Shown here: positions 4,024-64,000 of the stretch, one piece after another
How the letters are laid out: each line of letters starts with the position of its first letter
Numbering within the stretch: position 1 is the stretch's first letter
From: Escherichia coli
GTDB lineage: Bacteria; Pseudomonadota; Gammaproteobacteria; Enterobacterales; Enterobacteriaceae
Assembly: GCF_011045215.1 (NCBI RefSeq)
Contig: NZ_CP049201.1
Direction: 5' to 3' (one strand)
Length of the DNA stretch: 64,000 nt
The notes under the pieces: generated by a model
Told to the model about the DNA's origin: nothing
Seen by the model: the letters and a program-made list of their open reading frames with translations, nothing else
Databases searched by the model: none
Translations under genes and position numbers: made by a program

Positions 4024-5502
4024 ATGAGCTTACGTGAAAAGACCATCAGCGGCGCGAAGTGGTCGGCGATTGCCACGGTGATCATCATCGGCCTCGGGCT
4101 GGTGCAGATGACCGTGCTGGCGCGGATTATCGACAACCACCAGTTCGGTTTGCTTACCGTGTCGCTGGTGATTATCGCGCTGGCAGATACGCTTTCTGAC
4201 TTTGGTATCGCTAACTCGATTATTCAGCGAAAAGAAATCAGTCACCTTGAACTCACCACGTTGTACTGGCTGAACGTCGGGCTGGGGATCGTGGTGTGCG
4301 TGGCGGTGTTTTTGTTGAGTGATCTCATCGGCGACGTGCTGAATAACCCGGACCTGGCACCGTTGATTAAAACATTGTCGCTGGCGTTTGTGGTAATCCC
4401 CCACGGGCAACAGTTCCGCGCGTTGATGCAGAAGGAGCTGGAGTTCAACAAAATCGGCATGATCGAAACCAGCGCGGTACTGGCGGGCTTCACTTTTACG
4501 GTGGTTAGTGCCCATTTCTGGCCGCTGGCGATGACCGCGATCCTCGGTTATCTGGTCAATAGTGCGGTAAGAACGCTGCTGTTTGGCTACTTTGGCCGCA
4601 AAATTTATCGCCCCGGTCTGCACTTCTCGCTGGCGTCGGTGGCACCGAACTTACGCTTTGGTGCCTGGCTGACGGCGGACAGCATCATCAACTATCTCAA
4701 CACCAACCTTTCAACGCTGGTGCTGGCGCGTATTCTCGGCGCGGGCGTGGCAGGGGGATACAACCTGGCGTACAACGTGGCCGTTGTGCCACCGATGAAG
4801 CTGAACCCAATCATCACCCGCGTGTTGTTTCCGGCGTTTGCCAAAATTCAGGACGACACCGAAAAGCTGCGCGTTAACTTCTACAAGCTGCTGTCGGTAG
4901 TGGGGATTATCAACTTTCCGGCGCTGCTCGGGCTGATGGTGGTGTCGAATAATTTTGTACCGCTGGTCTTTGGTGAGAAGTGGAGCAGCATTATTCCGGT
5001 GCTGCAATTGCTGTGTGTGGTGGGGCTACTGCGCTCCGTGGGTAACCCGATTGGTTCGCTGCTGATGGCGAAAGCGCGGGTCGATATCAGCTTTAAATTC
5101 AACGTATTCAAAACATTTCTGTTTATTCCGGCGATTGTTATTGGTGGGCAGATGGCGGGCGCAATCGGCGTCACGCTCGGTTTCCTGCTGGTGCAGATTA
5201 TCAACACCATTCTGAGTTACTTCGTGATGATTAAACCGGTTCTTGGTTCCAGTTATCGCCAGTACATCCTGAGTTTGTGGCTGCCGTTTTATCTCTCGTT
5301 GCCGACGCTGGTGGTTAGTTATGCGCTGGGCATTGTGCTGAAAGGGCAACTGGCGCTGGGGATGCTGCTGGCGGTGCAAATAGCCGCGGGCGTGCTGGCG
5401 TTTGTGGTGATGATTGTGCTGTCGCGCCATCCGCTGGTGGTGGAAGTGAAGCGTCAGTTTTGTCGCAGCGAAAAAATGAAAATGCTTTTACGGGCGGGGT
5501 GA
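4024..5502 (+). CDS. wzxC: Colanic acid flippase WzxC, 492 aa
   Basis: ORF track; polytopic membrane protein of expected length and position. Confidence 0.88.
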   Translation: MSLREKTISGAKWSAIATVIIIGLGLVQMTVLARIIDNHQFGLLTVSLVIIALADTLSDFGIANSIIQRKEISHLELTTLYWLNVGLGIVVCVAVFLLSDLIGDVLNNPDLAPLIKTLSLAFVVIPHGQQFRALMQKELEFNKIGMIETSAVLAGFTFTVVSAHFWPLAMTAILGYLVNSAVRTLLFGYFGRKIYRPGLHFSLASVAPNLRFGAWLTADSIINYLNTNLSTLVLARILGAGVAGGYNLAYNVAVVPPMKLNPIITRVLFPAFAKIQDDTEKLRVNFYKLLSVVGIINFPALLGLMVVSNNFVPLVFGEKWSSIIPVLQLLCVVGLLRSVGNPIGSLLMAKARVDISFKFNVFKTFLFIPAIVIGGQMAGAIGVTLGFLLVQIINTILSYFVMIKPVLGSSYRQYILSLWLPFYLSLPTLVVSYALGIVLKGQLALGMLLAVQIAAGVLAFVVMIVLSRHPLVVEVKRQFCRSEKMKMLLRAG

Positions 5503-5530
5503 GTTGCTGTTTTCGGTTCCGACAACGGTT

Positions 5531-5718
5531 GCCGGATGCGGCGTAAAACGCCTTATCCATCCTACGGTTCTGTGCTCGGGACCTGTAGGCCTGATAAGAC
5601 GCGTCAGCGTCGCATCAGGCACTGAATGCCGGATGCGGCGTGAACGCCTTATCCGGCCTACGGTTCTGTGCTCGGGTCTTGTAGGCCTGATAAGACGCGT
5701 CAGCGTCGCATCAGGCAA
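5531..5718. repeat. REP/BIME cluster
   Basis: Tandem REP palindromes (GCCGGATGCGGCGT... / GCCTGATAAGACGCGTCAGCGTCGCATCAGGC); coordinates approximate. Confidence 0.7.
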
Positions 5719-5777
5719 AAAGCGGCAACGAAAAAAACAAACGCAGCCTCACCTGGCATCAAATTTATGAGGAAAAA

Positions 5778-7058
5778 ATGAAATTACTTATTCTGGGCAA
5801 CCACACTTGCGGCAATCGTGGCGATAGCGCCATCCTGCGCGGCTTACTTGATGCCATCAACATTCTCAATCCACACGCCGAAGTGGATGTGATGAGCCGC
5901 TATCCGGTCAGTTCTTCCTGGCTGCTCAACCGCCCGGTAATGGGCGATCCGCTGTTCCTGCAAATGAAACAACACAACAGCGCAGCGGGCGTTGTCGGGC
6001 GCGTTAAAAAAGTCCTCCGTCGCCGCTACCAGCATCAGGTACTGCTCTCGCGCGTCACCGACACTGGCAAGTTGCGTAATATCGCCATCGCCCAGGGATT
6101 CACTGACTTCGTGCGCCTGCTGTCAGGTTACGACGCCATTATTCAGGTCGGCGGATCGTTTTTTGTCGATCTCTACGGCGTGCCACAGTTTGAACATGCA
6201 CTTTGCACGTTTATGGCGAAAAAGCCGCTGTTTATGATTGGTCACAGCGTTGGCCCGTTCCAGGATGAGCAATTTAACCAACTGGCGAACTATGTCTTTG
6301 GTCACTGTGACGCGCTGATCCTGCGCGAATCGGTCAGCCTTGATCTGATGAAACGCAGCAATATCACCACCGCAAAAGTGGAACATGGCGTCGATACCGC
6401 GTGGCTGGTCGATCACCACACAGAAGACTTCACCGCCAGCTATGCCGTTCAACACTGGCTGGACGTTGCCGCACAACAGAAAACGGTGGCCATTACCCTG
6501 CGCGAACTGGCACCGTTCGACAAACGTCTCGGCACCACTCAACAAGCGTATGAAAAAGCCTTTGCCGGGGTGGTCAATCGCATTCTCGACGAAGGCTATC
6601 AGGTTATTGCGCTCTCCACCTGTACGGGCATCGACAGCTATAACAAAGACGACCGCATGGTGGCGCTCAACCTGCGTCAGCACATCAGCGATCCTGCCCG
6701 TTACCACGTAGTGATGGATGAACTCAACGATCTGGAAATGGGCAAAATTCTCGGAGCCTGTGAACTCACCGTCGGTACGCGCCTGCACTCCGCCATTATC
6801 TCAATGAACTTTGCCACTCCGGCGATTGCCATCAACTATGAACATAAATCCGCCGGGATCATGCAGCAGCTGGGACTACCGGAGATGGCAATTGATATCC
6901 GTCATTTACTGGACGGCAGCCTGCAAGCGATGGTTGCGGATACCTTAGGCCAACTTCCGGCGCTGAACGCACGACTTAACGAAGCTGTCAGTCGTGAGCG
7001 TCAGACGGGAATGCAGATGGTGCAATCTGTGCTTGAGCGCATCGGGGAGGTGAAATGA
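5778..7058 (+). CDS. wcaK: Colanic acid biosynthesis pyruvyl transferase WcaK, 426 aa
   Basis: ORF track; length and gene order. Confidence 0.88.
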   Translation: MKLLILGNHTCGNRGDSAILRGLLDAINILNPHAEVDVMSRYPVSSSWLLNRPVMGDPLFLQMKQHNSAAGVVGRVKKVLRRRYQHQVLLSRVTDTGKLRNIAIAQGFTDFVRLLSGYDAIIQVGGSFFVDLYGVPQFEHALCTFMAKKPLFMIGHSVGPFQDEQFNQLANYVFGHCDALILRESVSLDLMKRSNITTAKVEHGVDTAWLVDHHTEDFTASYAVQHWLDVAAQQKTVAITLRELAPFDKRLGTTQQAYEKAFAGVVNRILDEGYQVIALSTCTGIDSYNKDDRMVALNLRQHISDPARYHVVMDELNDLEMGKILGACELTVGTRLHSAIISMNFATPAIAINYEHKSAGIMQQLGLPEMAIDIRHLLDGSLQAMVADTLGQLPALNARLNEAVSRERQTGMQMVQSVLERIGEVK

Positions 7059-53246: not shown

Positions 53247-54140
53247 AAAGCGGTAGAAAAAGTTAAGTTCCCGGTTGATCGAATGGATGCGAATCGCTGA
53301 TCGAACTTCGATGCCAATCCGTGATCGAATAGAGCGGAATACGCATTCTGCCATTACCCACAATGCGCGGTTGAGCTTAATATCGGTGTCGATGTTGTGA
53401 ATGGCACGGGTGTGGATACGTTTTCCTTTTGCACTGCGGCCGGAAATCCCGCCTTTCAGCATATTCTCCTGGATGGTCTGATAAGTACTCCACAGGTCCT
53501 TACCGTAATCCTCCCGGCGTCGTGGCGTCAGAATGTCGGCGGTGGTGACGGGCCGATGTTCGTCACCATAACGGTAAGTCAGTGCCGCCTGTGCCAGCGC
53601 CTGGCGTGCCGGTGGCGGCAGGACCAGCGACTGCATGGCATCACGCTTCTCCTCTATCCGGTCAAACACGCCCACCACCTCGTAAGCCCCTTCAATGACT
53701 CTGTCCACCACATTTCCCCGATGCGGAACACGCACTTCCCCCAGAGACTGACCACAGACGCATCCGTTCTGACAGACGAACCTGAAGTAACCCGGCAGCA
53801 TCTGGTAGCTGGAGGTACCGTCATGGGAGTTGAGCAGAATGATTTCAGGGACATGTTCTCCGTTTATCTCTCCGGCCCGCCGCAGACGCAGCATGTGTTT
53901 TGTGTATCCCCGGCGGCCCGGGTCGCGCACACGGGTCTGGCAGGCGAAGAATGGCTGAAAGCCTTCCCGCTGCAGGCTTTCCAGTACGGTGATGGTGGGG
54001 ATGTACGTATAGTTCTGGCTTCGGGACGTGTGTTTCTCTTCCCCGAAAATCCCCGGCACATAGTGCATCAGTTCTTCGTGTGTCAGCGGACGGTCACGGC
54101 GTATCTGGTTCGCATAACCAAAACGACTGGCTAGTCGCAT
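53169..54140 (-). pseudogene. DUF932 (YafZ/YfjQ-family) gene with 3' end replaced by IS21-family terminal sequence
   Basis: ORF 53169..54140; first about 260 codons look like YafZ family (MRLASRFG...KLNRAL); after about 53356 the reading frame runs into the IS end and continues as unrelated sequence. Confidence 0.7.
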
Positions 54141-54297
54141 AATTTGCTCCTTATCGGTGGTTAAGATTTACTGGTGTAATAAATGAAAAAGCCACGTCTC
54201 CCGGAGAAGACGCGGCCTGACAGATGAAATGAATGACGTTTATTGTCTGAGAAGCCCTTAACTGGCGAGCTGAGTATTAAGCTGTGTTCCGGCATCA

Positions 54298-54489
54298 CTA
54301 GCGCAACTGACCTTCAGCATTACGGATAACCAGCCGGGAATATGTTCCCTGGTCATCTTCAGTAAACACATTGCGGTAAGCTGTTTTGACGACAACAGCC
54401 TGTTCGCGTGAGAAAGGGCCTTCGGGCAATAAACGTGATGTACAACCCGGCATATCTGTTGCTCCCTGAAAGTAAAAGGCCCCGGTCAT
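54298..54489 (-). CDS. Hypothetical small protein, 63 aa (doubtful)
   Basis: ORF track only; lies between the Ag43 remnant and the yafZ-like gene; no recognisable motif. Confidence 0.2.
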
Positions 54490-54523
54490 GATGACCGGGG
54501 CCTGAAGGAGAGTGACCTGATTA

Positions 54524-54595
54524 TCAGAAAGTCACATTCAGCGTGGCCTGACCGTTATAACCTTCAGCGCTGCTGCCGCTGACGCTGTGGGCATA
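54524..54595 (-). pseudogene. flu: 3'-terminal remnant of an autotransporter gene, consistent with antigen 43 (flu)
   Basis: Minus strand encodes [23 protein letters not shown]-stop, a typical autotransporter beta-barrel C-terminus ending in Phe; upstream reading frame is unrelated. Confidence 0.6.
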
Positions 54596-54754
54596 CCGGC
54601 AGGTACAAAACAGCATGGTCAGATAAAGTGGTTTTTCCCGGACATAAATGCTTCCCCTCTCTCATCCGCCAGAGAAGTATCAGTCCGTTGTGTGCAATTC
54701 CGTTCTGCATGATGAAGAGATTCAGCTGCCTTTTCGCAGACCATTAACCACTAT

Positions 54755-54800
54755 AAACGATCGATAGTAACGATCGATACCTGTTTTATCGATCGTTTTA
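54755..54800 (-). promoter_or_regulatory. Cluster of three GATC (Dam) sites in repeated AACGATCGATA motifs; resembles the agn43 phase-variation operator
   Basis: AACGATCGATA twice in direct orientation 13 bp apart plus inverted ATCGATCGTT, directly downstream of the YeeP-like GTPase gene where flu lies in CP4-44. Confidence 0.55.
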
Positions 54801-54912
54801 TTCTATTAACAGCAAGGCAGTCACGCAAGAGAAAGAGGTGGATATGAGGGGGTTGTGTCATGTTTTCAGTTGGTTAACGCAATGTAATCAGGCATTTCCC
54901 CTGGCAGACTGT

Positions 54913-55785
54913 TCAGAAGAAAATCCAGTTCCATACAGCGCGGGCAACAGAGACCACCGAGTCACGGACGGCACGCAGAACCGTGCGTGCAACAGAGGCA
55001 ATACAGACGCTCTCCGCCGTGTCAAATATCCGGTCCACCGCACCGGTAAACTGTTCACGGGCCTGAGACCGGACAGATTCCGTGCGCAGCTCGTCCTGCA
55101 GGCGGGTCATCAGGGGACTGGCGGCATGGTCGGGAAGCGCTGTCATGAGCGCACTGACCAGCATATCCAGTTCCCAGCCGGTGCAGGCCGATACGGCCAC
55201 AACCGGATGTACGGGCCGGAAGAGCCGGAATACCGCATCTGTTTTCTCACGAATGTTCTGTGCCTGTGCGGGAGAAGGCTGAATGCCGGCCATATCCCAT
55301 TCATGGCAGGGCTCCGTTTTGTCGGCCTGCGTCACCACAAACAGCACCTGCTGATGTCCCCGGTGCAGGATGTGTCGCCAGAAATACTCATCCACAGACA
55401 GGGCACGGTCATCGGCTTTAATCAGCCACAGTACCAGGTCAAGTTCAGGCAGAATGTCACGGTACAGGGCTTCATACTCTGCATCCCTGTCCCGGCTCTC
55501 GCCCACCCCGGGCAGGTCAGTGATAACCATGCTGTGACCGTGGCCACTCAGACGGAAGCGCTGCACTTCCCGGGTGCCGGCGTGAACATCACTGACCGGG
55601 GTGACCTCCCCCTGAAACAGTGCATTACAGAGTGAGGATTTACCGGCCCCGCTTTTACCCATAATGCCAATCACGGGTTCGTGACTGGTGAGTTTGCGCA
55701 GATGTTCCAGGATGTGACGGGAAAGTGAGTAAGGCAGGGAGGAGAGCGGTTTTTCAATTGCCTCAATGGCATCAGACGGATTCAT
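54913..55785 (-). CDS. yeeP: YeeP/YkfA/YfjP-family GTPase, 290 aa
   Basis: ORF 54913..55848; start at MNPSDAIEA; G1 motif GKSGAGKSS, G3 DLPG, G4 TQAD. Confidence 0.85.
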   Translation of the reverse strand: MNPSDAIEAIEKPLSSLPYSLSRHILEHLRKLTSHEPVIGIMGKSGAGKSSLCNALFQGEVTPVSDVHAGTREVQRFRLSGHGHSMVITDLPGVGESRDRDAEYEALYRDILPELDLVLWLIKADDRALSVDEYFWRHILHRGHQQVLFVVTQADKTEPCHEWDMAGIQPSPAQAQNIREKTDAVFRLFRPVHPVVAVSACTGWELDMLVSALMTALPDHAASPLMTRLQDELRTESVRSQAREQFTGAVDRIFDTAESVCIASVARTVLRAVRDSVVSVARAVWNWIFF

Positions 55786-55800
55786 ACATGTATTCCCGGT

Positions 55801-55842
55801 GAAAAAAGACAAAACCCCCGCACACCGGAAAGGTGGCGGGGG
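55801..55842 (-). terminator. Rho-independent terminator downstream of the frameshifted cargo gene
   Basis: Minus strand CCCCCGCCACC-TTTCC-GGTGTGCGGGGG followed by TTTTGTCTTTTTT; lies between stop at 55870 and GTPase start. Confidence 0.7.
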
Positions 55843-55869
55843 ACTCACGGAGATAATATATGTCTGAAA

Positions 55870-56788
55870 TTATCTGGAATGTCGGTACCTTTTATACTCT
55901 TCAACAATCAGGTCATGCAGCATTTCGCCGGTACTGAGTCTTCTGACCCTCGATAATTCTTTGAGCTGCGCCCTGGTTTCTGCGTCAAGAAAAAACTGTA
56001 CATTGACTTTATCTTCCTGCATTTTTTTGTACTTGCGCTGCGCCTTGGCCTTATTGAAACTGTTTCTGAAATTTTTTATATCGTCAGGTGAGGTGAGTGG
56101 ACAGGTAACCCATATGTCAAATGAAAGGTGAATTGCGTGGTAAATATCAGCAGAACCAGGAAAACTGGCCAGTTTTTCCAGTGCAATATTTTTTCCCTTC
56201 AAATAATTCCATGTCCATATGCATTCATGTTCGTTCTCCGGGAGGAGGTAACTGAAAGGACTCTTTGATTTAAATGCCCGCATCCATCTGTCTTTGGTCT
56301 GGATTATCCACTCATCCCGCAAATTCTTATCAGAAAGAATATCGAGAACTCTGAGTATTTGTCTGAACTGTGTCGATGAGTCCGACGGGAAGGCATTCCC
56401 TTCCAGATACTCTTCTTTAAGATACAGTTTATTCTTTTGAAGCAAGTCTGCGCTTATTTTTGCCCTGTTATTCTGGATAAACTGCATCAACAGATACCAG
56501 GAAAATAAGCATGCGCGTTCACTGCCCGCGATCCAGGATATTTTTTCCAGGGGGACCAGGAAGGCCAGGGCCTTCAGACGCATACCAGAAATTATTTGTT
56601 CAAGTTCAAAATCTGAAAGTGTGATGTTCAGATTTTCTCTGTTTTTTTTTTATGTAAGCGATAAAACGTTCCGGGGGATCATAAACATTAAGGGGCAGTA
56701 CGGAGATATTACGCTCTCCAAGATAATAAGAGTAATACGCATTTGTTCTTTCATTCATAACCTTATCCGACAAAATTTTCTGAACCAT
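55870..56788 (-). pseudogene. AT-rich uncharacterised gene split by a frameshift in an A10 tract; reconstructed product about 305 aa with C-terminal ribbon-helix-helix-like region
   Basis: ORFs 56606..56788 (60 aa) and 55870..56583 (237 aa) are on the same strand; the downstream frame stays open back to the A/T run at 56642..56651; removing one A fuses them; start ATG at 56788 has GGAGA upstream; C-terminus VNVQFFLDAETRAQLKELSRVRRLSTGEMLHDLIVEEYKRY has a beta-strand plus two-helix RHH pattern. Confidence 0.55.
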
Positions 56789-57343
56789 CCTCTTTCTCCG
56801 GCTGCTTAAAAATTAAACATAATAAGGTGATAATAATATGATAAAAAGAAGTTTATAATGGTATATTAAGATGGTCAATAAAAAGGCAATCTGCGCGCTG
56901 TATAGTCATTCTGACAGGAAATGCAGGAGGAAGGGAAGGTAACCGGCTTCGTTATGCTGACAGGAATACCTGTTATCATGGAAGTGCACTCATGTGGCCG
57001 ACGTAGCTTAAGAGGATGGAAGAGTGGAGACTGCAGACAGGGGGTATTGAAAGGTAAACATGTTTCGCCCGCCAGCTGCACCGGGGGCCAGCATCACTTT
57101 TTTTACGTTGTAACCCGGTATGCATTCCGGCTTTGATGATTACAGTCAGAGGGCAGCAGACTGACGTTATTTAACCGGACAGAAAAATTATGGACACTGA
57201 AATATCGTCTGTTAATACCTCGTTTGTCGGTGTGGTATTCCCTGTATTACCGGCGTCACCGATAAAGAGAGTTATAAACGCCAGAAAGGTACCTCCTTTA
57301 TGCCGGGGAACACTTACGGAAAATGAAGTCTGAAAAGGAGCAC

Positions 57344-57472
57344 AATGAAAAGAGGCGTGTCCCGTAAATATAACGAATCATCGCAGGATATACATTATCA
57401 GGTGATACCAGAGGGCATTAAACTGTCGCCACGGATAAGAATATACAACATTTCTGATAACAAAACATCATA
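57344..57472 (+). CDS. Hypothetical small ORF, 42 aa (MKRGVSRKYNESSQDIHYQVIPEGIKLSPRIRIYNISDNKTS)
   Basis: ATG preceded by AAGGAG with a 4-nt spacer; below ORF-track size cutoff; coordinates approximate; no homology known to me. Confidence 0.2.
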
Positions 57473-57988
57473 ACGTGTTTCAGATATGTTCCGGCATCAG
57501 TCTGACGGATATTATTTCCCGGTAAAACAAACCGGCTACTGTAACGGTTAACTGTATCTGCATAAATTATTTATGATGAAAGAACAGTATTACGGATTCA
57601 AATATCATCCTGTTTGCATTCAGGCGGACATTCCCGGATGCCGGAAAGAATATCCTGCAGGCTGAGTGAGTCTCTTCCACAGTGCCGGGATCGCTGTCGC
57701 CACGTACATATTGTCACCAGGATGGGTATGTACCGCAGCATGCCATTTCTGGTGAATAACCGCACCTGCACATTCAGTCTGCTGAGAACCTGGCGTGTAT
57801 CGGGCTGTAAAGAACATCCCTGTCCGTGGCTCCTCTGGTGGTGTTGCCTGCTCAGCAATGACAGGATGCCCTTAAGACGCCCGTCATGGCTCAGTATGAT
57901 GACGACGAACACGCTCTGCAGGTGAGCATGCGGGGCCGGGAGCATCATCATTTCCGTATTTTGTCACACCTTCCGGAAGCAACCGGCA

Positions 57989-58606
57989 TCAGTTGCGGCT
58001 ATCGTCAACCGTTGTGCGGTATGCCAGGAGCACGTACTGATCCATCAGATCCGTCAGTGCTGCGCTCTGCCTCTGACGGTTGATGATCCATTCCTCCAGC
58101 TCTTTTTCTGATTTCCGTTTCAGGTTCTCTTTCCAGTCTTCAAGGCTGTTTCCGGTCATTAAATCAAGCCAGCAAAGCCAGACCAGTTTGAGGCGCAACT
58201 CCGTGCCACCAAACTGACGGAAGAGGCTGATCAGTTTATTTGCCAGAGAACGCTGCCTCAGACGTTCACATTCAGACAGGAGAATGCCTTCCAGCATCGG
58301 ATGATGAACCAGCAGATGTTCACTGGTGCATAAATTCACTATCAGATCATCATCCAGGGGCGGCGTGGCCCGTTTGTCAGGGCCATAAATCAGCCGGTGC
58401 AGGCTCTGGGGTACGATGGCAATCTCCGGTTTTTCACCATTGAATGACACCCAACCGGGCGTCAGATTATGGAAGTCGTAGATATTCGGATGACACACGC
58501 CCCAGGATACGGCGTGCCGGGTGAAGCCGGTCAGCCATTTCTGGTAGCTTTCGTGGAGCCATTCGTAGCGGGTCTGATACTGTTGTTTCATTTTCATATT
58601 CCTCAC
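57989..58606 (-). CDS. Uncharacterised protein, 205 aa, immediately downstream of the alpA-like gene
   Basis: ORF track; same strand and 80 bp from alpA-like stop; no recognisable motif. Confidence 0.5.
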   Translation of the reverse strand: MRNMKMKQQYQTRYEWLHESYQKWLTGFTRHAVSWGVCHPNIYDFHNLTPGWVSFNGEKPEIAIVPQSLHRLIYGPDKRATPPLDDDLIVNLCTSEHLLVHHPMLEGILLSECERLRQRSLANKLISLFRQFGGTELRLKLVWLCWLDLMTGNSLEDWKENLKRKSEKELEEWIINRQRQSAALTDLMDQYVLLAYRTTVDDSRN

Positions 58607-58685
58607 GGGGATATAACAGGCAGCAGAATGCCGCCGGCAGGCCGGGGATTACGTCTGCTGCGGGTGAACGGATAACGGTCAGAAA

Positions 58686-58892
58686 TTACGGGCGGGGCTG
58701 TGCAATACGCGCCTGCAGCCAGGCTTCCACTTCACTTTTCAGCCAGCGGGAGCTGCGGCCCAGCTTGATGGGAGCCGGAAAGGCCCCATCCCTGATGAGC
58801 CTGTAAAACCACTTATCTGTCAGGCCGGTCAGTTGAGTGATAAATGCCATGTCGACCATCTGGTCATCCATCAGTGAAACTGGGGTAGCCAT
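58686..58892 (-). CDS. alpA: AlpA-family prophage transcriptional regulator / excisionase-like protein, 68 aa
   Basis: C-terminal 68 codons of ORF 58686..59087 starting MATPVSLMDD after GGAGG; ITQLTGLTDKWFYRLIRDGAFPAPIKLGRSSRWLKSEVEAWL fits AlpA/Xis-like HTH pattern. Confidence 0.75.
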   Translation of the reverse strand: MATPVSLMDDQMVDMAFITQLTGLTDKWFYRLIRDGAFPAPIKLGRSSRWLKSEVEAWLQARIAQPRP

Positions 58893-59340
58893 GAGAATGT
58901 TCCTCCGGATGTTGTTAAACCAGCCGGTGTGGTCATGAAAACAGCGCGCCACCTTCACCGGCATAACAACCGGGGAGAAACGTAAAAAATAATCGGGAAT
59001 GTGACCGCCAGGAGATAAACGGGGAGGTTGCGGTGGCTGAGCCGTACCGGTATACCGGGTGGTTGTTGCGAAAAGATGCTTCCGCACGCACGCGCGATAA
59101 AGAGGGGATAGTTTTCGTGAGGACAGGGAGAGAAGCAGGCGTTCTGATAATTGCAGAGTTGTTTTCGGAGGTGGTTACAGTGAGTCAGCCCGTTCCTGGC
59201 GAGGAGGAGACTGATATCACCGATGGGATAAGGCTGTCTGATTGGTATTATAAATATAAGAAGTCATCAGAGAGTAACGTAAAGGATTTGCCAGAGTAAG
59301 CTAAGAGAGCAAATCTCTCCGGTAACAGAGCGCTGTGAAT

Positions 59341-59391
59341 CGTTCATGTATCAGAGTGCAGATACATGAACGCTGATGCGTAAAATCAGCA
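59341..59391. other. Two adjacent inverted repeats (perfect 12-bp stem CGTTCATGTATC/GATACATGAACG, then GCTGAT..ATCAGC)
   Basis: Seen directly; no U-tract; possible protein-binding palindrome; coordinates approximate. Confidence 0.4.
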
Positions 59392-59966
59392 GTGACACGC
59401 CAGCTCCCCCTGTGCCCATTCCTGTATAAGACATGAACTGAGCGTATTAATGCTCCTGCCCTGAGACTGAGCCGGTGAGTGAGGGGCTGAGAAATCCCTC
59501 TTGACACTGCTCTAAACCAGAAATACTTCCCCGGTTGTTGCGGTGCGTCCGGATCCCCGATAACGGAACACTAAGGCTGTATTGCGGGACACCTGGTAAG
59601 TGGCAGCCCGTAATACGTCAGGAGACGCGGGAAAAGTGAATTCCCACACGCGTTATAAACTTACCCTTGCGGAGCTGGAAGCCTTTAACTCTGCCGTTGA
59701 CAACCGGCTGGCAGAACTGACAATGAACAAACTTTACGATCGCGCGCCGGCTTCCGTCTGGAAATATGTCACCTGAATATTGAAGCAGCGCTACGATGAC
59801 TCCGGTGTTATCTGCACCGGAGGACCGGGAACATTAAGCGGTATAGCGACAACAAAGAATTCGAAATCAAAAGGGAATGGTGCCGGAGGCGTGGGCGGTA
59901 ATAGGCTGATTTTCAGGTATTACCGGCCTGTATCTGCTGAAGGGGGCTCGTATTTGTCGGGGCTGC

Positions 59967-60003
59967 GTATTCCGCTCGATTCGATCACGGATTGGCGGAA
60001 TAC
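59967..60003. repeat. Orphan fragment resembling the terminal repeat of the IS21-family element
   Basis: GTATTCCGCTCGATTCGATCACGGATTGG closely matches the reverse complement of the right end of the 50.7-53.4 kb IS (CCAATCCGTGATCGAATAGAGCGGAATAC). Confidence 0.5.
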
Positions 60004-60491
60004 CTAACTGTGATTGATTCAGGTACCATTTTGCAGGGATCCGGTGCGTTACTGTCTGGCACAACAAACGCAGCGGGTCGCTCTGCTCCGCCGATTCCTG
60101 ATAATCCCTCCCCAGTAACCTACTGCAACAGTACAAATACACTGACGCCTGAAACGGTAACCAGAATCAGCACCAGCAGTAACTCAGTAAACAGAGCAGA
60201 CGATCGGTCTTCCGGTAATAACCGGAAGGAACGACAGCGCCACAATACAGGCAACACACTGTATTATGAGTAATCGAATTACCGCAATCCCCGCATTTCT
60301 TTTTGCGTATCACGATAGCTCCCTCGCCACGCCTTATCCGTAACCGGTTTTTTACATTAAAAAAAACAACGCCGGGAATTCAATCGTCAGTCCGGAGACG
60401 ACCGTTCGGGTTATCACAGAGAGCCTGAGCAGGGGGGCTGCGCATTTTTTACGATGTGGCTATTCCGTATGAACCATACGGAGATATAACC

Positions 60492-61061
60492 ATGACCTAC
60501 AAATACAACCCCTTCTGGCAGCAACGTATTCGTGAGACGGTGCGGCACGCACTGAATGTTCATCCCCGCCTGACGGCATTGCGGGTTGACCTGCGTTTCC
60601 CGGATGTACCGGCAGCAACGGACGCAGCTGTGATATCCCGCTTCATCAATGCCCTGAAAGCCCGAATCGACGCTTACCAGAAACGTAAGCATCGGGAAGG
60701 TAAACGCGTGCATTCCACAACCCTGCATTACGTCTGGGCCCGGGAGTTTGGGGAGTGCAAAGGTAAAAAACACTATCACCTGATGCTGCTGGTCAACCGG
60801 GATACCTGGTGTCGTGCCGGTGATTACCGCGCTCCGGGATCACTGGCCGGGATGATTAAACAGGCGTGGTGCAGTGCCCTGGGAGTGGATGTCGGGTGCC
60901 ATGCCACGCTGGTGCATTTTCCGGCCTGGCCGGCGGTGTGGCTGGCGCGTAATGATGACACCGGCTTTCAGCAAGTGCTGGAACGTGCTGACTATCTGGC
61001 GAAGGAGCATACCAAAGTTCACTGCACCGGTGAGCGCAACTTTGGCTGCAGTCGTGGCTGA
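60492..61061 (+). CDS. Inovirus Gp2-like / YagK-YfjJ-family protein, 189 aa
   Basis: ORF 60456..61061; start at ATG 60492 after GGAGA; KKHYHLMLLVNRD segment recalled from YagK/YfjJ-type proteins; family assignment from memory. Confidence 0.5.
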   Translation: MTYKYNPFWQQRIRETVRHALNVHPRLTALRVDLRFPDVPAATDAAVISRFINALKARIDAYQKRKHREGKRVHSTTLHYVWAREFGECKGKKHYHLMLLVNRDTWCRAGDYRAPGSLAGMIKQAWCSALGVDVGCHATLVHFPAWPAVWLARNDDTGFQQVLERADYLAKEHTKVHCTGERNFGCSRG

Positions 61062-61226
61062 GCCAGACAGACGAGTTATCTGACTTCAGTGTGATGACGT
61101 GTTCACGGCCACCACACTGATTTTCCCTTATGAGACTGAACTGAAACCGCCATTCACACCGGACCACGCTGCCCGTACCGGGACGGCTGTTGCCTGCGTG
61201 TCGTCTGACGGTAAGGAACATATACT

Positions 61227-61619
61227 ATGTACGCAAAATCCTTTCTCGCTCTTGATGGCAACGGACGTCTGACGGGCGCCCGTACAGCACAGGCCGCACC
61301 TTATGCTCACTACACCTGCCACTTGTGTGGCAGTGCACTCAGATACCATCCGCAATACGACACTGAACTTCCCTGGTTTGAACACACTGACGACAGGCTG
61401 ACAGAGCACGGTCAACAGTGCCCTTATGTCAGGCCGGAGCGCAGAGAAATACAGTTGATTAAACGTCTGCAGCAATTCGTACCGGATGCCTTACCCGTGG
61501 TGCGTAAAGCCAGCTGGCACTGCAGACAATGTCACCACGATTATTATGGGGAGCGGTACTGCACACACTGCCAGACCGGAGGTTTCAGTCTTCCCCGGAC
61601 AGCTCAGCAACTGTCTTGA
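61227..61619 (+). CDS. Cys-rich double zinc-ribbon protein, 130 aa (paralog A)
   Basis: ORF track; CHLCGS...PWFEH then WHCRQCHHDYYGERYCTHCQTG; paralogous to 62783..63193. Confidence 0.55.
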   Translation: MYAKSFLALDGNGRLTGARTAQAAPYAHYTCHLCGSALRYHPQYDTELPWFEHTDDRLTEHGQQCPYVRPERREIQLIKRLQQFVPDALPVVRKASWHCRQCHHDYYGERYCTHCQTGGFSLPRTAQQLS

Positions 61620-61628
61620 ACGTAAAAA

Positions 61629-62597
<969 letters not shown>

Positions 62598-62782
62598 GAT
62601 TACCCATCCTTGCAAATGCGTTATGGCGTACTGACAACTGTTCGGGTTTCAGATGAGTGGCTCAGTGTATGCGCCATTCGCTGAGCTACGGGCTATGAAC
62701 CCCTTGAGGGATCGGGCTGCATACACCTTGCCAAATCTAATCACAGTTATTTTAACCAATTGTCAAGATACAAGGAGGAGAT

Positions 62783-63193
62783 ATGCGAATTCTGAACTGC
62801 TATATGGCGAATGACAGCAAAGGCCATTTTGTTACGGCGAAAGAAGCCGCGAAGCACAACCGACAGGACGTTTTGTGCTGTGTGTCCTGTGGTTGTCCGT
62901 TAACACTTAAGCGGGGAAATGACGGACAACCGCCGTGGTTTGAACATGACCAGATGACTGTTGCTGCGAAAATCCTGCTGCGATGCACCTGGCTTGACCC
63001 GGCAGAGAAAGAGGCCCGTCGTTTGCATCTGCAGGGCATGACGGTTCCGGATTATACGGTGAAGGTGAGAAAGTGGTTTTGTGTGATGTGTGACGAAGAT
63101 TATGAGGGGGAAAAGTGCTGCCCGCGTTGTGGTACTGGGGTATACAGCAGGGAGGGGGGGCTGCAGGAAGGCAACTGGAAGGATAGGAACTGA
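62783..63193 (+). CDS. Cys-rich double zinc-ribbon protein, 136 aa (paralog B)
   Basis: ORF track; CCVSCGCPL...PWFEH then WFCVMCDEDYEGEKCCPRCGTG; same architecture as paralog A. Confidence 0.55.
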   Translation: MRILNCYMANDSKGHFVTAKEAAKHNRQDVLCCVSCGCPLTLKRGNDGQPPWFEHDQMTVAAKILLRCTWLDPAEKEARRLHLQGMTVPDYTVKVRKWFCVMCDEDYEGEKCCPRCGTGVYSREGGLQEGNWKDRN

Positions 63194-63381
63194 GCGGTTC
63201 AGTCGCGGAAATCAGTTGCAGAGCTGTAATGATATCTCCGGGAGTGCTGCGTTGGTAGGGGCATCCCGGGATAGAGAAATTTTAGCACTTTGCCCTGAAT
63301 GATTGTAGACGCCCCGAGTACTCGTACCGGTCTGAGTTATTACAGTTAGATATTCACTTTTTCTCCCGCATACTTCACATC

Positions 63382-63403
63382 TGTCAACGACGGATGAAAA
63401 GTG
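63382..63403 (+). repeat. Isolated 22-bp copy of the IS100 terminal inverted repeat
   Basis: TGTCAACGACGGATGAAAAGTG is identical to IS100 end at 44370..44391; flanking sequence diverges immediately. Confidence 0.75.
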
Positions 63404-63476
63404 GTTCTTCCGCAACCTGGGTGGAAGAAAATGGATGAAACTTTCTGGCGAACAAGGATCTAAGCTGTTTTAAGTT

Positions 63477-64000
63477 ATGGGCAACCCAATGCACTCTCTT
63501 AAGACACTTCTACAGTTACCTTGCGGATGGCGATGCAGTCGACAAATTATTAGCTCTGACGGTATAACCCTCCATCTCCACGGAAAACGCAAAACAGCAC
63601 AATGTCCTGAATGCTTTAAGCGTAGCGACTCTGTTCATAGTTGTTGTCGGCGCCGGATACAGCATCTACCCTGATCAGGACAGACGCTATAGCTTGTATT
63701 TTCCGTCCGCCACTGGTACTGCCGTAACCCAGCTTGTTCACGTAAAATTTTTGCCGAGTCGCTTGCTCCCTTCGCCGGTTCACACCAACAGTCTTCACAG
63801 GCGTTACAAAATTTACAACGTCAACTGGGATTAATAGCTGGAGGTGAGGCTGGAAAACGGGCTGCAACGGCAGCGGGTCTCCGTTGCAGTGCTGATACTC
63901 TTCTTCGCAGGGTTATCAATACCCCGGAGACGAAACAGTCAGGCGCGCCTCATGTCGGTATTGATGAGTGGGCGTGGCATCGGGGCCACTGCTGCGGTAT
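63477..64000 (+). pseudogene. ISL3-family transposase, frameshifted, continues past window end
   Basis: ORF 63477..63674 has an ISL3-type N-terminal zinc finger (CPECFKRSDSVHSCCRRRIQHLP); a second frame from about 63696 reads RNPACSRKIFAES...VGIDEWAWHRGH, typical ISL3 transposase motifs. Confidence 0.6.

Follow-up and report, generated by a model that had tools for sequence, protein, structure and literature searches.

The 1.2-kb interval at positions 56789..57988 of a 64,000-nt stretch of DNA from Escherichia coli (the window) is probably a composite scar, left by the shuffling of modules within a CP4-44-type integrative island. It is ordinary genome decay, and not a new gene or RNA. Comparison of the window with E. 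coli chromosomes placed the island at the chromosomal dacD/yeeA locus, with the local gene order CbtA, YeeU, YeeT, YeeS, antirestriction, DUF932, Ag43, GTPase, 305-aa gene, the interval, 200-aa gene, AlpA, Hha and Gp2. The interval was identified, unannotated, in about 1,285 complete E. coli genomes, at a median of one copy per genome, and is confined to this island type. Its sequence is conserved at >=99% identity in 1,116 complete genomes, ST131 isolates among them. We found nothing on this locus in the published literature.

We propose that a cassette with the 305-aa gene (55881..~57660) would have arrived together with an upstream control region and an alpA of its own, and that this second alpA, being redundant, would have decayed to the frameshifted remnant that we identify below (Table 1). 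The first ~90 nt beside the 305-aa gene would then be a still-working promoter/operator region, marked by a 24-nt box, and the remaining ~600 nt would be unconstrained filler, consisting of ~290 nt of allele-specific DNA and ~330 nt that travel with the intact alpA-200aa module. Such filler would tolerate IS insertions and evolve at least as fast as silent sites.

Table 1. Features in and next to the interval, in window coordinates.
Feature	Position	Strand	Description
T10 run in the 305-aa gene	56642..56651	-	A10 on the coding strand; frameshift gives a 60-aa ORF and a 237-aa ORF
Putative promoter/leader region of the 305-aa gene	56789..56880	-	AT-rich; best-conserved block in comparison with Salmonella, Serratia and other islands
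24-nt box	56814..56837	-	ATTATTATCACCTTATTATGTTTA (GTTATTATCACCTTATTATGTTTA in relatives); one copy per island, 24-26 nt upstream of the ATG
Rest of the ancestral divergent 305-aa gene/alpA intergenic region	56881..57097		Colinear by blastn and MAFFT with L015, L016 and L018, 60-66% identity
Old alpA upstream region/leader	57098..57189	+	T7ACGTT block, CCGG...CCGG and AACCGGA ahead of the ATG at 57190; aligned with related islands
alpA pseudogene	57190..57374	+	About 185 nt, against 207 nt when intact; at least two frameshifts, several deletions
42-codon ORF	57345..57473	+	ATG start; AAGGAG 7 nt upstream; judged non-genic
Allele-specific DNA	57375..57660		Restricted to full-length copies of this allele
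Imperfect 23-nt inverted repeat	57497..57519 with 57643..57665		Delimits 169 nt; terminates at the edge of the allele-specific DNA
Shared segment	57661..57988		Directly 3' of the intact 200-aa gene; non-coding, poorly constrained

Coding potential of the interval

The first-pass annotation had noted a long stretch without a convincing ORF, and we confirmed that the interval is without a credible gene. Only short overlapping ORFs were found on both strands, the longest being of 117 aa on the - strand and of 103 aa on the + strand. Under a 3-periodic Markov model, for which 38 long ORFs from the window served as the training set, every ORF within the interval scored negatively, at -4.3 to -8.9 bits/100 nt, compared with +5.6, +4.6 and +3.1 bits/100 nt for the flanking 200-aa, GTPase and alpA genes, respectively. 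The RefSeq annotation is not consistent: in strain 873.10 the sole PGAP call touching the interval is a 65-aa ORF (57886..58083, +) that overlaps the 200-aa gene, and other strains carry differing 65-aa calls. No family in Pfam, NCBIfam or PHROGs was matched, and when all six frames were translated and searched by tblastn in 72,556 plasmid and 50,697 phage records, only the sequence itself was returned, these libraries and collections defining the scope of the protein-level negatives.

The 42-codon ORF with a Shine-Dalgarno sequence, singled out in the first-pass annotation, does exist, one base away from where it had been placed, but does not hold up as a meaningful cue. In its favour as a real small protein are the AAGGAG ahead of its ATG and its recovery by gene callers in many E. 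coli and Shigella genomes, with a cluster of 68 members consisting of "hypothetical protein" calls and one 395-aa protein from a MAG, which is unrelated and was judged to be a clustering artefact. Against these stand its coding score of -4.3 bits/100 nt, its out-of-frame overlap with the 3' end of the alpA remnant, the lack of any match in Pfam, NCBIfam or PHROGs or of RefSeq PGAP annotation in the six strains inspected, and the loss of its frame in strain WCHEC040047 (L013) through a 2-nt insertion at 57399. Every ORF of the interval is disrupted by an indel in some strain, among them the 42-, 117- and 65-codon ORFs; the indels that fall in ORFs other than the 42-codon one include the loss of 1 nt at 57931 and the gain of 3 nt at 57890. 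Frames differ between island variants, and no reading frame of the interval is kept in variants L002 or L003. It is thus very improbable that this or another short ORF of the interval encodes a protein, and the "hypothetical protein" calls of 42, 47, 65 and 71 aa are spurious and can be discounted.

The upstream region of the 305-aa gene and the alpA remnant

Homology extends across the first part of the interval into islands of other genera. Positions 54912..57299 of the window align with positions 6660..4252 of a Salmonella locus (L015) at 71% identity, through the intergenic region and into alpA, and islands from Salmonella, Serratia and elsewhere can be aligned colinearly over 56789..~57097. 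In the related islands (Salmonella, Serratia, Enterobacter, Edwardsiella and some E. coli), the 305-aa gene is followed by the GTPase gene, and both are divergent from alpA and a 197-aa gene. We identified homologues of the 305-aa protein divergent from alpA in six other lineages: in Salmonella, Serratia and GCA_902171725 an intact alpA is directly divergent from the 305-aa-family gene, and in Enterobacter, Edwardsiella and a second E. coli type the two are divergent and not directly adjacent, with a spacing across the related islands of roughly 420-1000 nt. In the E. coli type of this window, the intact alpA-200aa pair has the opposite orientation and all these genes run in the same direction.

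The suggestion that the interval might hold a regulatory region for the adjacent gene is supported for its first ~90-300 nt, which form the conserved upstream control region of the 305-aa gene, whose start codon lies at 56788 on the - strand. The 24-nt box within it is kept in seven lineages whose 305-aa-family proteins share only 49-79% identity, scoring 32-36.6 against a PWM with a maximum of 36.6; elsewhere in the upstream region distant lineages can scarcely be aligned, and the box stays at a fixed distance from the ATG. This is the only part of the interval that looks functional, and its conservation suggests that it may serve the 305-aa-family gene as operator or core promoter. A promoter scan additionally predicted a -35 TTGACC and a -10 TAAACT separated by 17 nt (9/12 matches; 56878..56850, -), one of seven such sites found against 3.9 expected, these being common in AT-rich DNA. 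The AT-rich part is limited to the first ~100 nt of the interval (GC ~0.37). RNAalifold gave -0.5 kcal/mol for the conserved leader, with no compensatory pairs and no consensus RNA structure.

We examined further repeats as candidate sites. The motif CTGACAGG, previously reported as repeated in GC-rich stretches, has exactly two copies in the interval (56911 and 56957), both within a 16-nt direct repeat whose units lie 46 nt apart, and four copies in the window compared with 1.3 expected, a count reached by 4 of 100 shuffles. These copies are real, but as operator sites they were rejected, since the motif is not conserved, the homologous positions in related islands reading CTATCAGC and GGTCCG. 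The stretches around them are GC-rich only in a relative sense, with a GC of 0.44-0.46 around 56800..57400 that lies below the 0.50-0.55 of the neighbouring genes. A family of 19-nt direct repeats (56814, 57389 and 57462) was likewise rejected as a source of extra box copies, the extra members scoring below 12 bits with the 24-nt PWM, a level that arises by chance about once per shuffled window. A conserved palindrome, AAACATGTTT, is present at 57056..57065, nearer to alpA.

Beyond the intergenic region, a degraded gene had been offered as one explanation of the interval, and we identified one, albeit over ~185 nt and preceded by its leader, rather than across the whole region. An nhmmer profile of the alpA-200aa module matched 57098..57282 on the + strand (E=1e-11), covering the leader and the 5' coding sequence, and a profile of the alpA coding sequence only matched 57191..57286 (E=2.6e-5). 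At the protein level, an AlpA profile matched over aa 18-38 (E=0.007), and tblastn recovered AlpA aa 1-17, 18-38 and 45-63 colinearly in three different frames. The blastn alignment is colinear with L015 and L018 into alpA, and MAFFT gave 48-57% nucleotide identity, with 31 gap columns and an in-frame stop. A 47-codon ORF (57190..57333) corresponds to the N-terminal part of the remnant. The frameshift-corrected translation has no match to Phage_AlpA (PF05930) at E<=10, compared with E=1.6e-9 for an intact relative, and the 3' half is weakly alignable. Because of this, our assignment of a heavily decayed, frameshifted and dead alpA pseudogene relies on synteny and on the homology that nucleotide profiles detect in the leader and the initial ~100 nt. 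The remnant is divergent from the 305-aa-family gene across the shared intergenic region, and lies ~1.3 kb from the intact alpA (about 58686..58892, -) and on the opposite strand to it. The recognisable pseudogene makes up ~15% of the interval, and no single, continuous degraded gene was found to span the whole interval.

The allele-specific and shared segments

The distal half of the interval falls within and beyond a variable cassette, with homology to the E. coli variants L002 and L003 ending at 55881 and picking up again at 57661 or 57709. We could not find similarity of the allele-specific segment (57375..57660) to related islands at the DNA or protein level, nor to plasmids or phages. 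Each of the four E. coli island variants that we examined keeps the shared segment beside the 200-aa gene; its identity is 87% to L003 and 70% to L002, with indels that are not multiples of three and no reading frame conserved across variants. The segment is more divergent than the third codon positions of the adjacent 200-aa gene, which differ by 4% (L003) and 21% (L002), the gene itself being 97.5% and 88% identical, respectively. In L004, an internal deletion has removed ~100 nt (window ~57746..57844). Salmonella, Serratia and related islands lack the segment; a DNA pattern from its best-conserved block had no match in 100,044 species-representative genomes, and an alignment of the 200-aa protein against species-representative genomes confirmed no related locus. 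In other strains, IS3, IS66 and IS1 insertions occur at several points within the interval, and the corresponding site in sister E. coli island variants holds fragments of IS21 IstB along with further pseudogene pieces. About half of the interval (57375..57988) was matched to no source in these comparisons, so that we describe it as filler by default rather than by demonstration.

It is possible, if far from established, that this half contains further genes decayed or truncated beyond recognition, such as the 197-aa gene that follows alpA or a lost cargo gene downstream of the 200-aa gene, which would extend the module-shuffling explanation without contradicting it. In relatives, the 197-aa gene lies ~97 nt after alpA; an ORF at 57573 begins with MMKEQYYGFKY, resembling the family N-termini MKQQYQTRYE and MKDYKPRYEE; a tblastn match of 91 residues covers family aa 59-147 at 57602..57859 (E=0.047, in a tiny search space); and the IS21 and pseudogene pieces of the other variants point the same way. 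However, the weak tblastn matches to the 197/200-aa family are mutually inconsistent in position, a 200-aa-family profile HMM gave a best E of 3.9 against six-frame fragments of three variants, nhmmer with the module profile found nothing significant past the alpA part (next match E=0.16), and tblastx against all related loci gave nothing below E=0.2. Two specific candidates were rejected: a tail-to-tail decayed copy of the 200-aa gene at 57573..57988, for which profile HMM, nhmmer and tblastx yielded no significant match, and descent of the shared ~330 nt from the spacer between the 197-aa and Gp2 genes of Salmonella-type islands, the nhmmer spacer profile finding nothing there. A remnant of an insertion sequence, MITE or other repeated mobile element, in or making up the interval, is extremely improbable. 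The inverted repeat around 169 nt, ending at the allele-specific boundary, and the IS21 remnants in sister variants are what such an element might leave, but no target-site duplication is evident at the repeat ends, the interval is a single-copy sequence of this island type and unlike anything else in the window, Pfam gave no match, and tblastn against the plasmid collection, itself rich in IS elements, returned only the sequence itself.

The constant association of the shared segment with the 200-aa gene could also mean more than linkage, the segment possibly acting as a 3' UTR or as a zone of termination. We consider it unlikely that part of the interval, most plausibly 57661..57988 or 57375..57660, is transcribed as a functional RNA, whether a small regulator or a 3' UTR belonging to the alpA-200aa operon; in one version, a Rho-dependent termination zone would separate that operon from the 305-aa/GTPase operon, which follows it on the same strand. 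The retention of the segment in all four variants is consistent with this. Past the end of the 200-aa gene the - strand has no predicted intrinsic terminator, so that transcription may continue into the interval; an RNA from this strand would be C-rich and G-poor (GC skew on the + strand lies between +0.12 and +0.23 over 56600..57399 and drops to ~0 over 57400..57999), which might favour Rho loading. When folded as single-stranded DNA, 57380..57990 gave a z-score of -2.6, a weak value from only 20 shuffles. The small RNA raised by the first-pass annotation was not borne out. A 14-kb scan with Rfam 15 gave no match in the interval at E<=1, and a 1.4-kb scan with lax filters gave best E values of 3 and 6.6, with scores of 19-20 bits where the thresholds are 50-55. 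Folding of the RNA in 120-nt windows gave z-scores between -2.3 and +2.6 over both strands, with none standing out. The greater-than-silent divergence of the shared segment, its many indels, including the L004 deletion, its absence from the related islands and the interruption of the interval by IS elements in several strains further argue against a functional RNA. A Frpo-like single-strand promoter with a long hairpin, or an oriT, was also rejected on the general folding and plasmid-similarity searches, which gave no strong fold signal and no similarity to any true plasmid.

Relation to CP4-type islands and a possible switch

The gene repertoire and the dacD/yeeA locus match those of the CP4-44, CP4-57 and CP4-6 cryptic "prophages" of E. 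coli K-12, with the interval lying between the regulatory module and the GTPase gene. The repertoire of the CP4 family comprises AlpA, YagK/YfjJ Gp2-like proteins, the YeeP/YfjP GTPase, Ag43, YfjQ DUF932, antirestriction, the RadC-like YeeS and CbtA/CbeA. We know of no described K-12 counterpart of the interval, as K-12 CP4-44 is presumably truncated upstream of yeeP. The DNA at 57098..57374 is homologous to the leader and coding sequence of alpA from CP4-57-type cryptic prophages and integrative islands, and occupies the same site, divergent from the 305-aa/GTPase operon. The interval further resembles the mosaic junctions, pseudogene debris and IS hotspots of genomic islands in its breaks in homology at 55881 and ~57660 and in the IS elements found in other variants and strains, but this allele carries no IS remnant, and its recognisable debris consists of a regulator gene and a control region.

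Under the module-shuffling reading, an unannotated hole of 1.2 kb resolves into control sequences, a decayed alpA and filler, which also illustrates how this island family is built: a cassette with a 305-aa-type gene is exchanged while the flanks stay conserved, and the orientation of the alpA module has been reversed relative to Salmonella- and Serratia-type islands.

More tentatively, and as a possibility that we hold well short of favoured, the 24-nt box and the palindrome near the old alpA leader may be the operator of an undescribed switch over a long same-direction CP4-type operon, with either AlpA or the 305-aa protein itself as the regulator. The dead alpA would then be a fossil of an ancestral divergent switch, rewired in the E. 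coli type by inverting alpA. The operon placed under this switch would encode the 305-aa protein, GTPase, Ag43, DUF932, antirestriction, RadC-like and CbtA/CbeA proteins, and the near-invariant box may accordingly be a control point for the Ag43, antirestriction and toxin-antitoxin operon of the island. A short, AT-rich and near-invariant box at a fixed distance from the start codon, and a conserved palindrome nearer to alpA, are reminiscent of the divergent promoter/operator regions of mobile-element switches, from which the interval differs in that the candidate operator or promoter is assigned through conservation only.

We additionally noted a weak, sub-threshold match of the C-terminus of the 305-aa protein to Arc/ribbon-helix-helix-like domains. 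PADLOC defence models gave only generic GTPase matches among the flanking proteins. Finally, the 305-aa gene of this window is itself frameshifted at its T10 run, compared with T9 and an intact ORF in five other strains, and the resulting 237-aa product falls in a separate cluster of 111 sequences.

Coding content of the stretch and an alpA remnant

The 1.2-kb stretch between the 305-aa and 200-aa genes is, quite probably, a rearrangement scar, composed of an upstream control region and an alpA fossil, the remaining ~600 nt being unconstrained DNA. We consider the feature real but ordinary; new to this well-known island family are an alpA pseudogene missing from the annotation and a putative control box that is conserved.

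The island is of the CP4-44/CP4-57 type, and the region has its match at the dacD/yeeA locus of E. coli chromosomes; literature searches on the locus returned nothing. In E. coli strain 873.10, the RefSeq annotation of the minus strand lists CbtA toxin, YeeU antitoxin, YeeT, YeeS (JAB/RadC-like), antirestriction, DUF932, DUF905, Ag43 and GTPase-family proteins and the 305-aa hypothetical protein, then about 1.1 kb without annotation, and beyond it the 200-aa hypothetical protein and an AlpA-family HTH protein, followed on the plus strand by Hha, a Gp2-family (YagK/YfjJ) protein and zinc-ribbon proteins. We additionally noted a strong GC-rich hairpin with a U-run between the GTPase gene (upstream) and Ag43 (downstream), probably an intrinsic terminator, which partially matches MicL in its terminator part only (20.9 bits, threshold 56).

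As the first-pass annotation had stated, the stretch contains no convincing ORF, only short overlapping ones, the longest of 117 aa (-) and 103 aa (+). Under a 3-periodic Markov model, with 38 long window ORFs as the training set, every ORF of the stretch had a negative score (-4.3 to -8.9 bits per 100 nt), against +5.6, +4.6 and +3.1 for the neighbouring 200-aa, GTPase and alpA genes. What PGAP annotates varies by strain, from no gene at all to one or the other of two 65-aa ORFs. Both seem to be spurious, and one overlaps the 200-aa gene antisense at its 3' end. The 42-codon ORF with a Shine-Dalgarno sequence noted earlier is indeed present, overlapping the 3' end of the alpA remnant out of frame, and is disrupted in strain WCHEC040047 by a 2-nt insertion at 57399; its 42-aa cluster contains one odd 395-aa member, an unrelated sequence.

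On the basis of synteny and nucleotide homology, we identify a heavily decayed alpA pseudogene within the stretch. By blastn, window 54912..57299 is colinear with 6660..4252 of the Salmonella locus L015 (71% identity), across the GTPase gene, the 305-aa gene, the whole intergenic region and the first part of alpA, and the intact 200aa-alpA pair matches L015 3481..4459 with the relative orientation reversed. Profile searches with the alpA-200aa module at the nucleotide level hit the stretch at 57098..57282 (+, E=1e-11), and those with the alpA coding sequence only hit 57191..57286 (E=2.6e-5). Three AlpA peptide matches are colinear, yet each is in a different frame; nucleotides are 48-57% identical in the alpA multiple alignment, which extends from an ATG to a stop and contains 31 gap columns, and the conceptual translation has lost its match to Pfam Phage_AlpA. 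In all six contexts outside this allele, the 305-aa homologue and the genes upstream of it are on opposite strands. In the three nearest relatives the upstream genes are alpA (68 aa), starting ~410-420 nt from the 305-aa homologue, followed by a 197/198-aa gene; in the others (E. coli second type, Enterobacter, Edwardsiella) the spacer is 600-1000 nt. The window is unlike these related islands in that its intact alpA-200aa pair has the same direction as the 305-aa gene. The degraded gene previously suggested is found in part, as the alpA remnant; 57375..57988 holds no recognisable gene.

Features of the stretch and its surroundings (window coordinates unless a locus is named)
Feature	Position	Strand	Basis or remark
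Hairpin with U-run	54471..54536	-	probable intrinsic terminator
305-aa gene	55870..56788	-	frameshifted
T10 run	56642..56651		
Variable cassette	55881..~57660		
Conserved box	56814..56837	-	alignment/PWM
Box, Salmonella locus	L015 4736..4759		alignment/PWM
Box, other related islands	L016 5953..5976; L018 5952..5975; L020 5953..5976; L022 5952..5975; L023 5951..5974		alignment/PWM
Sigma-70 match	56878..56850		TTGACC, 17 nt, TAAACT
CTGACAGG repeats	56911; 56957		
Palindrome, 10 nt	57056..57065		candidate operator
alpA pseudogene	57190..~57374	+	synteny, nucleotide homology
AlpA residues 1-17	57190..57240		protein level
AlpA residues 18-38	57237..57299		protein level
AlpA residues 45-63	57305..57361		protein level
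47-codon ORF	57190..57333		N-terminus of alpA remnant
42-codon ORF	57345..57473		AAGGAG upstream
65-aa ORF	57886..58083	+	RefSeq PGAP "hypothetical protein", sometimes "frameshifted"
65-aa ORF	57620..57817	-	as above
IS66	after 57031		strain UMNK88
IS66	near 57463		strain p10B
IS3	after 57684		strain Yu5
IS1	within stretch		strain Ec-U4-19
Deletion	56966 fused to integrase remnant		strain K207-3
Allele-specific segment	57375..57660		
Common segment	57661..57988		present in every E. coli variant; adjoins 3' end of 200-aa gene
Intact 200aa-alpA pair	58005..58989		

The 305-aa gene and its upstream region

In this window the stretch is in effect extended by the frameshift that the T10 run causes in the adjoining 305-aa gene; the run is T9 in five other strains. 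The 237-aa ORF left by the frameshift has its own cluster of 111 sequences, indicating that the slip allele is recurrent, and the homopolymer could be phase-variable. Full-length homologues were identified in Salmonella enterica (79% identity), GCA_902171725 (70%), Serratia fonticola (69%), another E. coli type (53%), Enterobacter mori (51%) and Edwardsiella (49%), and the positional counterparts in the E. coli island variants L002 (383 aa) and L003 (290 aa) show remote similarity only. PHROGs matches below threshold (E=0.02-0.09) suggest that the C-terminus of the 305-aa and 290-aa proteins may be Arc/ribbon-helix-helix-like.

One block, GTTATTATCACCTTATTATGTTTA, stands out in both the four-way alignment of the window with L015, L016 and L018 (A3) and a nine-way alignment of regions upstream of 305-aa-type genes. 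Scanning with its PWM gives a single site in each island of seven lineages, with scores of 32-36.6 (maximum 36.6) over a background of about one match scoring at least 12 per shuffled window. The site is always 24-26 nt 5' of the ATG of the 305-aa-family gene, in E. coli, Salmonella, Serratia, Enterobacter and Edwardsiella islands whose proteins are merely 49-79% identical; it is absent from L002 and L003, and is not fully fixed within E. coli, 56823 varying in two of six strains. RNAalifold found no consensus RNA structure at the box (-0.5 kcal/mol, zero compensatory pairs), and the constraint is therefore most likely on DNA, as in a putative promoter or operator. A 9/12 sigma-70 match lies just upstream of the box.

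The four-way alignment additionally conserves a palindrome and a T7ACGT block closer to the old alpA. The palindrome precedes the alpA start by ~125 nt; its sequence is AAACATGTTT in the window and GAACATGTTC in the relatives (A3 columns ~376-390), a symmetric change that keeps it palindromic, and a dimeric protein may use it as an operator. A regulatory region, as initially proposed, would correspond to the conserved putative control block upstream of the 305-aa gene. The CTGACAGG motif, found twice inside a 16-nt direct repeat, is not conserved, the equivalent positions of relatives in the four-way alignment having CTATCAGC and GGTCCG. The surrounding part, described as GC-rich, has a GC of 0.44-0.46, lower than the neighbouring genes.

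A variable cassette in E. coli islands

The stretch is matched in 2,792 of 5,426 complete E. coli genomes, of which only 1,285 hold >80% of it; all full-length copies among the 40 matches listed are at least 97.7% identical. Shorter matches in the same allele result from IS insertions or deletions within the stretch. The more divergent E. coli island variants L002, L003 and L004 have only 57661/57709..57988 in common with it (70%, 87% and 79-94% identity, respectively), the remaining gap being unrelated DNA that includes IS21 IstB fragments. On the other side, similarity ends at 55881, ten bases within the 3' end of the 305-aa gene, which delimits a variable cassette containing the 305-aa gene and three quarters of the stretch. 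Between conserved flanks, the E. coli variants have exchanged a cassette, which comprises a 305-, 383- or 290-aa protein gene and 1-2.4 kb of junk.

We propose that the upstream region of the 305-aa/GTPase operon would have been kept functional, that the fossil alpA would have arrived, divergent, with the 305-aa cassette, and that the last 330 nt of unconstrained DNA would hitch-hike with the intact alpA-200aa module. The order of the rearrangement events is inferred, and so is the reason for the decay of this alpA copy, namely the presence of a second, intact one.

RNA signals and the unassigned half

The small RNA considered in the first-pass annotation found no support from covariance-model scans or RNA folding. 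Rfam scans gave no match in the stretch (50000..64000, E<=1) and only two chance-level matches under laxer filters (56700..58100, E=3 and 6.6), and fold z-scores in 120-nt windows of both strands ranged from -2.3 to +2.6. Folded as single-stranded DNA, 57380..57990 gave z = -2.6 (20 shuffles), a weak signal that is due in part to imperfectly paired inverted repeats (57497..57519 with 57643..57665). In the left half of the stretch a minus-strand RNA would be C-rich, and no intrinsic terminator is predicted after the 200-aa gene, making Rho-dependent termination of read-through plausible from the sequence.

For 57375..57988, neither the allele-specific nor the common segment showed similarity to the rest of the window or, at DNA or protein level, to related islands. 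Across the family libraries and the plasmid and phage collections that define the protein-level searches, no Pfam, NCBIfam or PHROGs family matched, and nothing similar was found in true plasmids and phages other than ~200 nt of the common segment in four plasmid records (70% identity, no annotated feature there). Identity of the common segment is 87% with L003 and 70% with L002, against 97.5% and 88% for the adjoining 200-aa gene, whose third codon positions differ by 4% and 21%. The segment thus evolves no more slowly than silent sites, a comparison that recombination history could distort. Its indels are not multiples of three, L004 has a ~100-nt deletion, and no reading frame is common to the variants.

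Similarities to the 197/200-aa family in this half are weak: an MMKEQYY start (57573) and a 91-residue alignment (E=0.047) were mutually inconsistent and had no family-profile support. In the Salmonella island, we additionally identified a second, divergent paralogue of the 197-aa gene (L015 130..723, -), ~3 kb from the first copy and beyond the Gp2 and zinc-ribbon genes.
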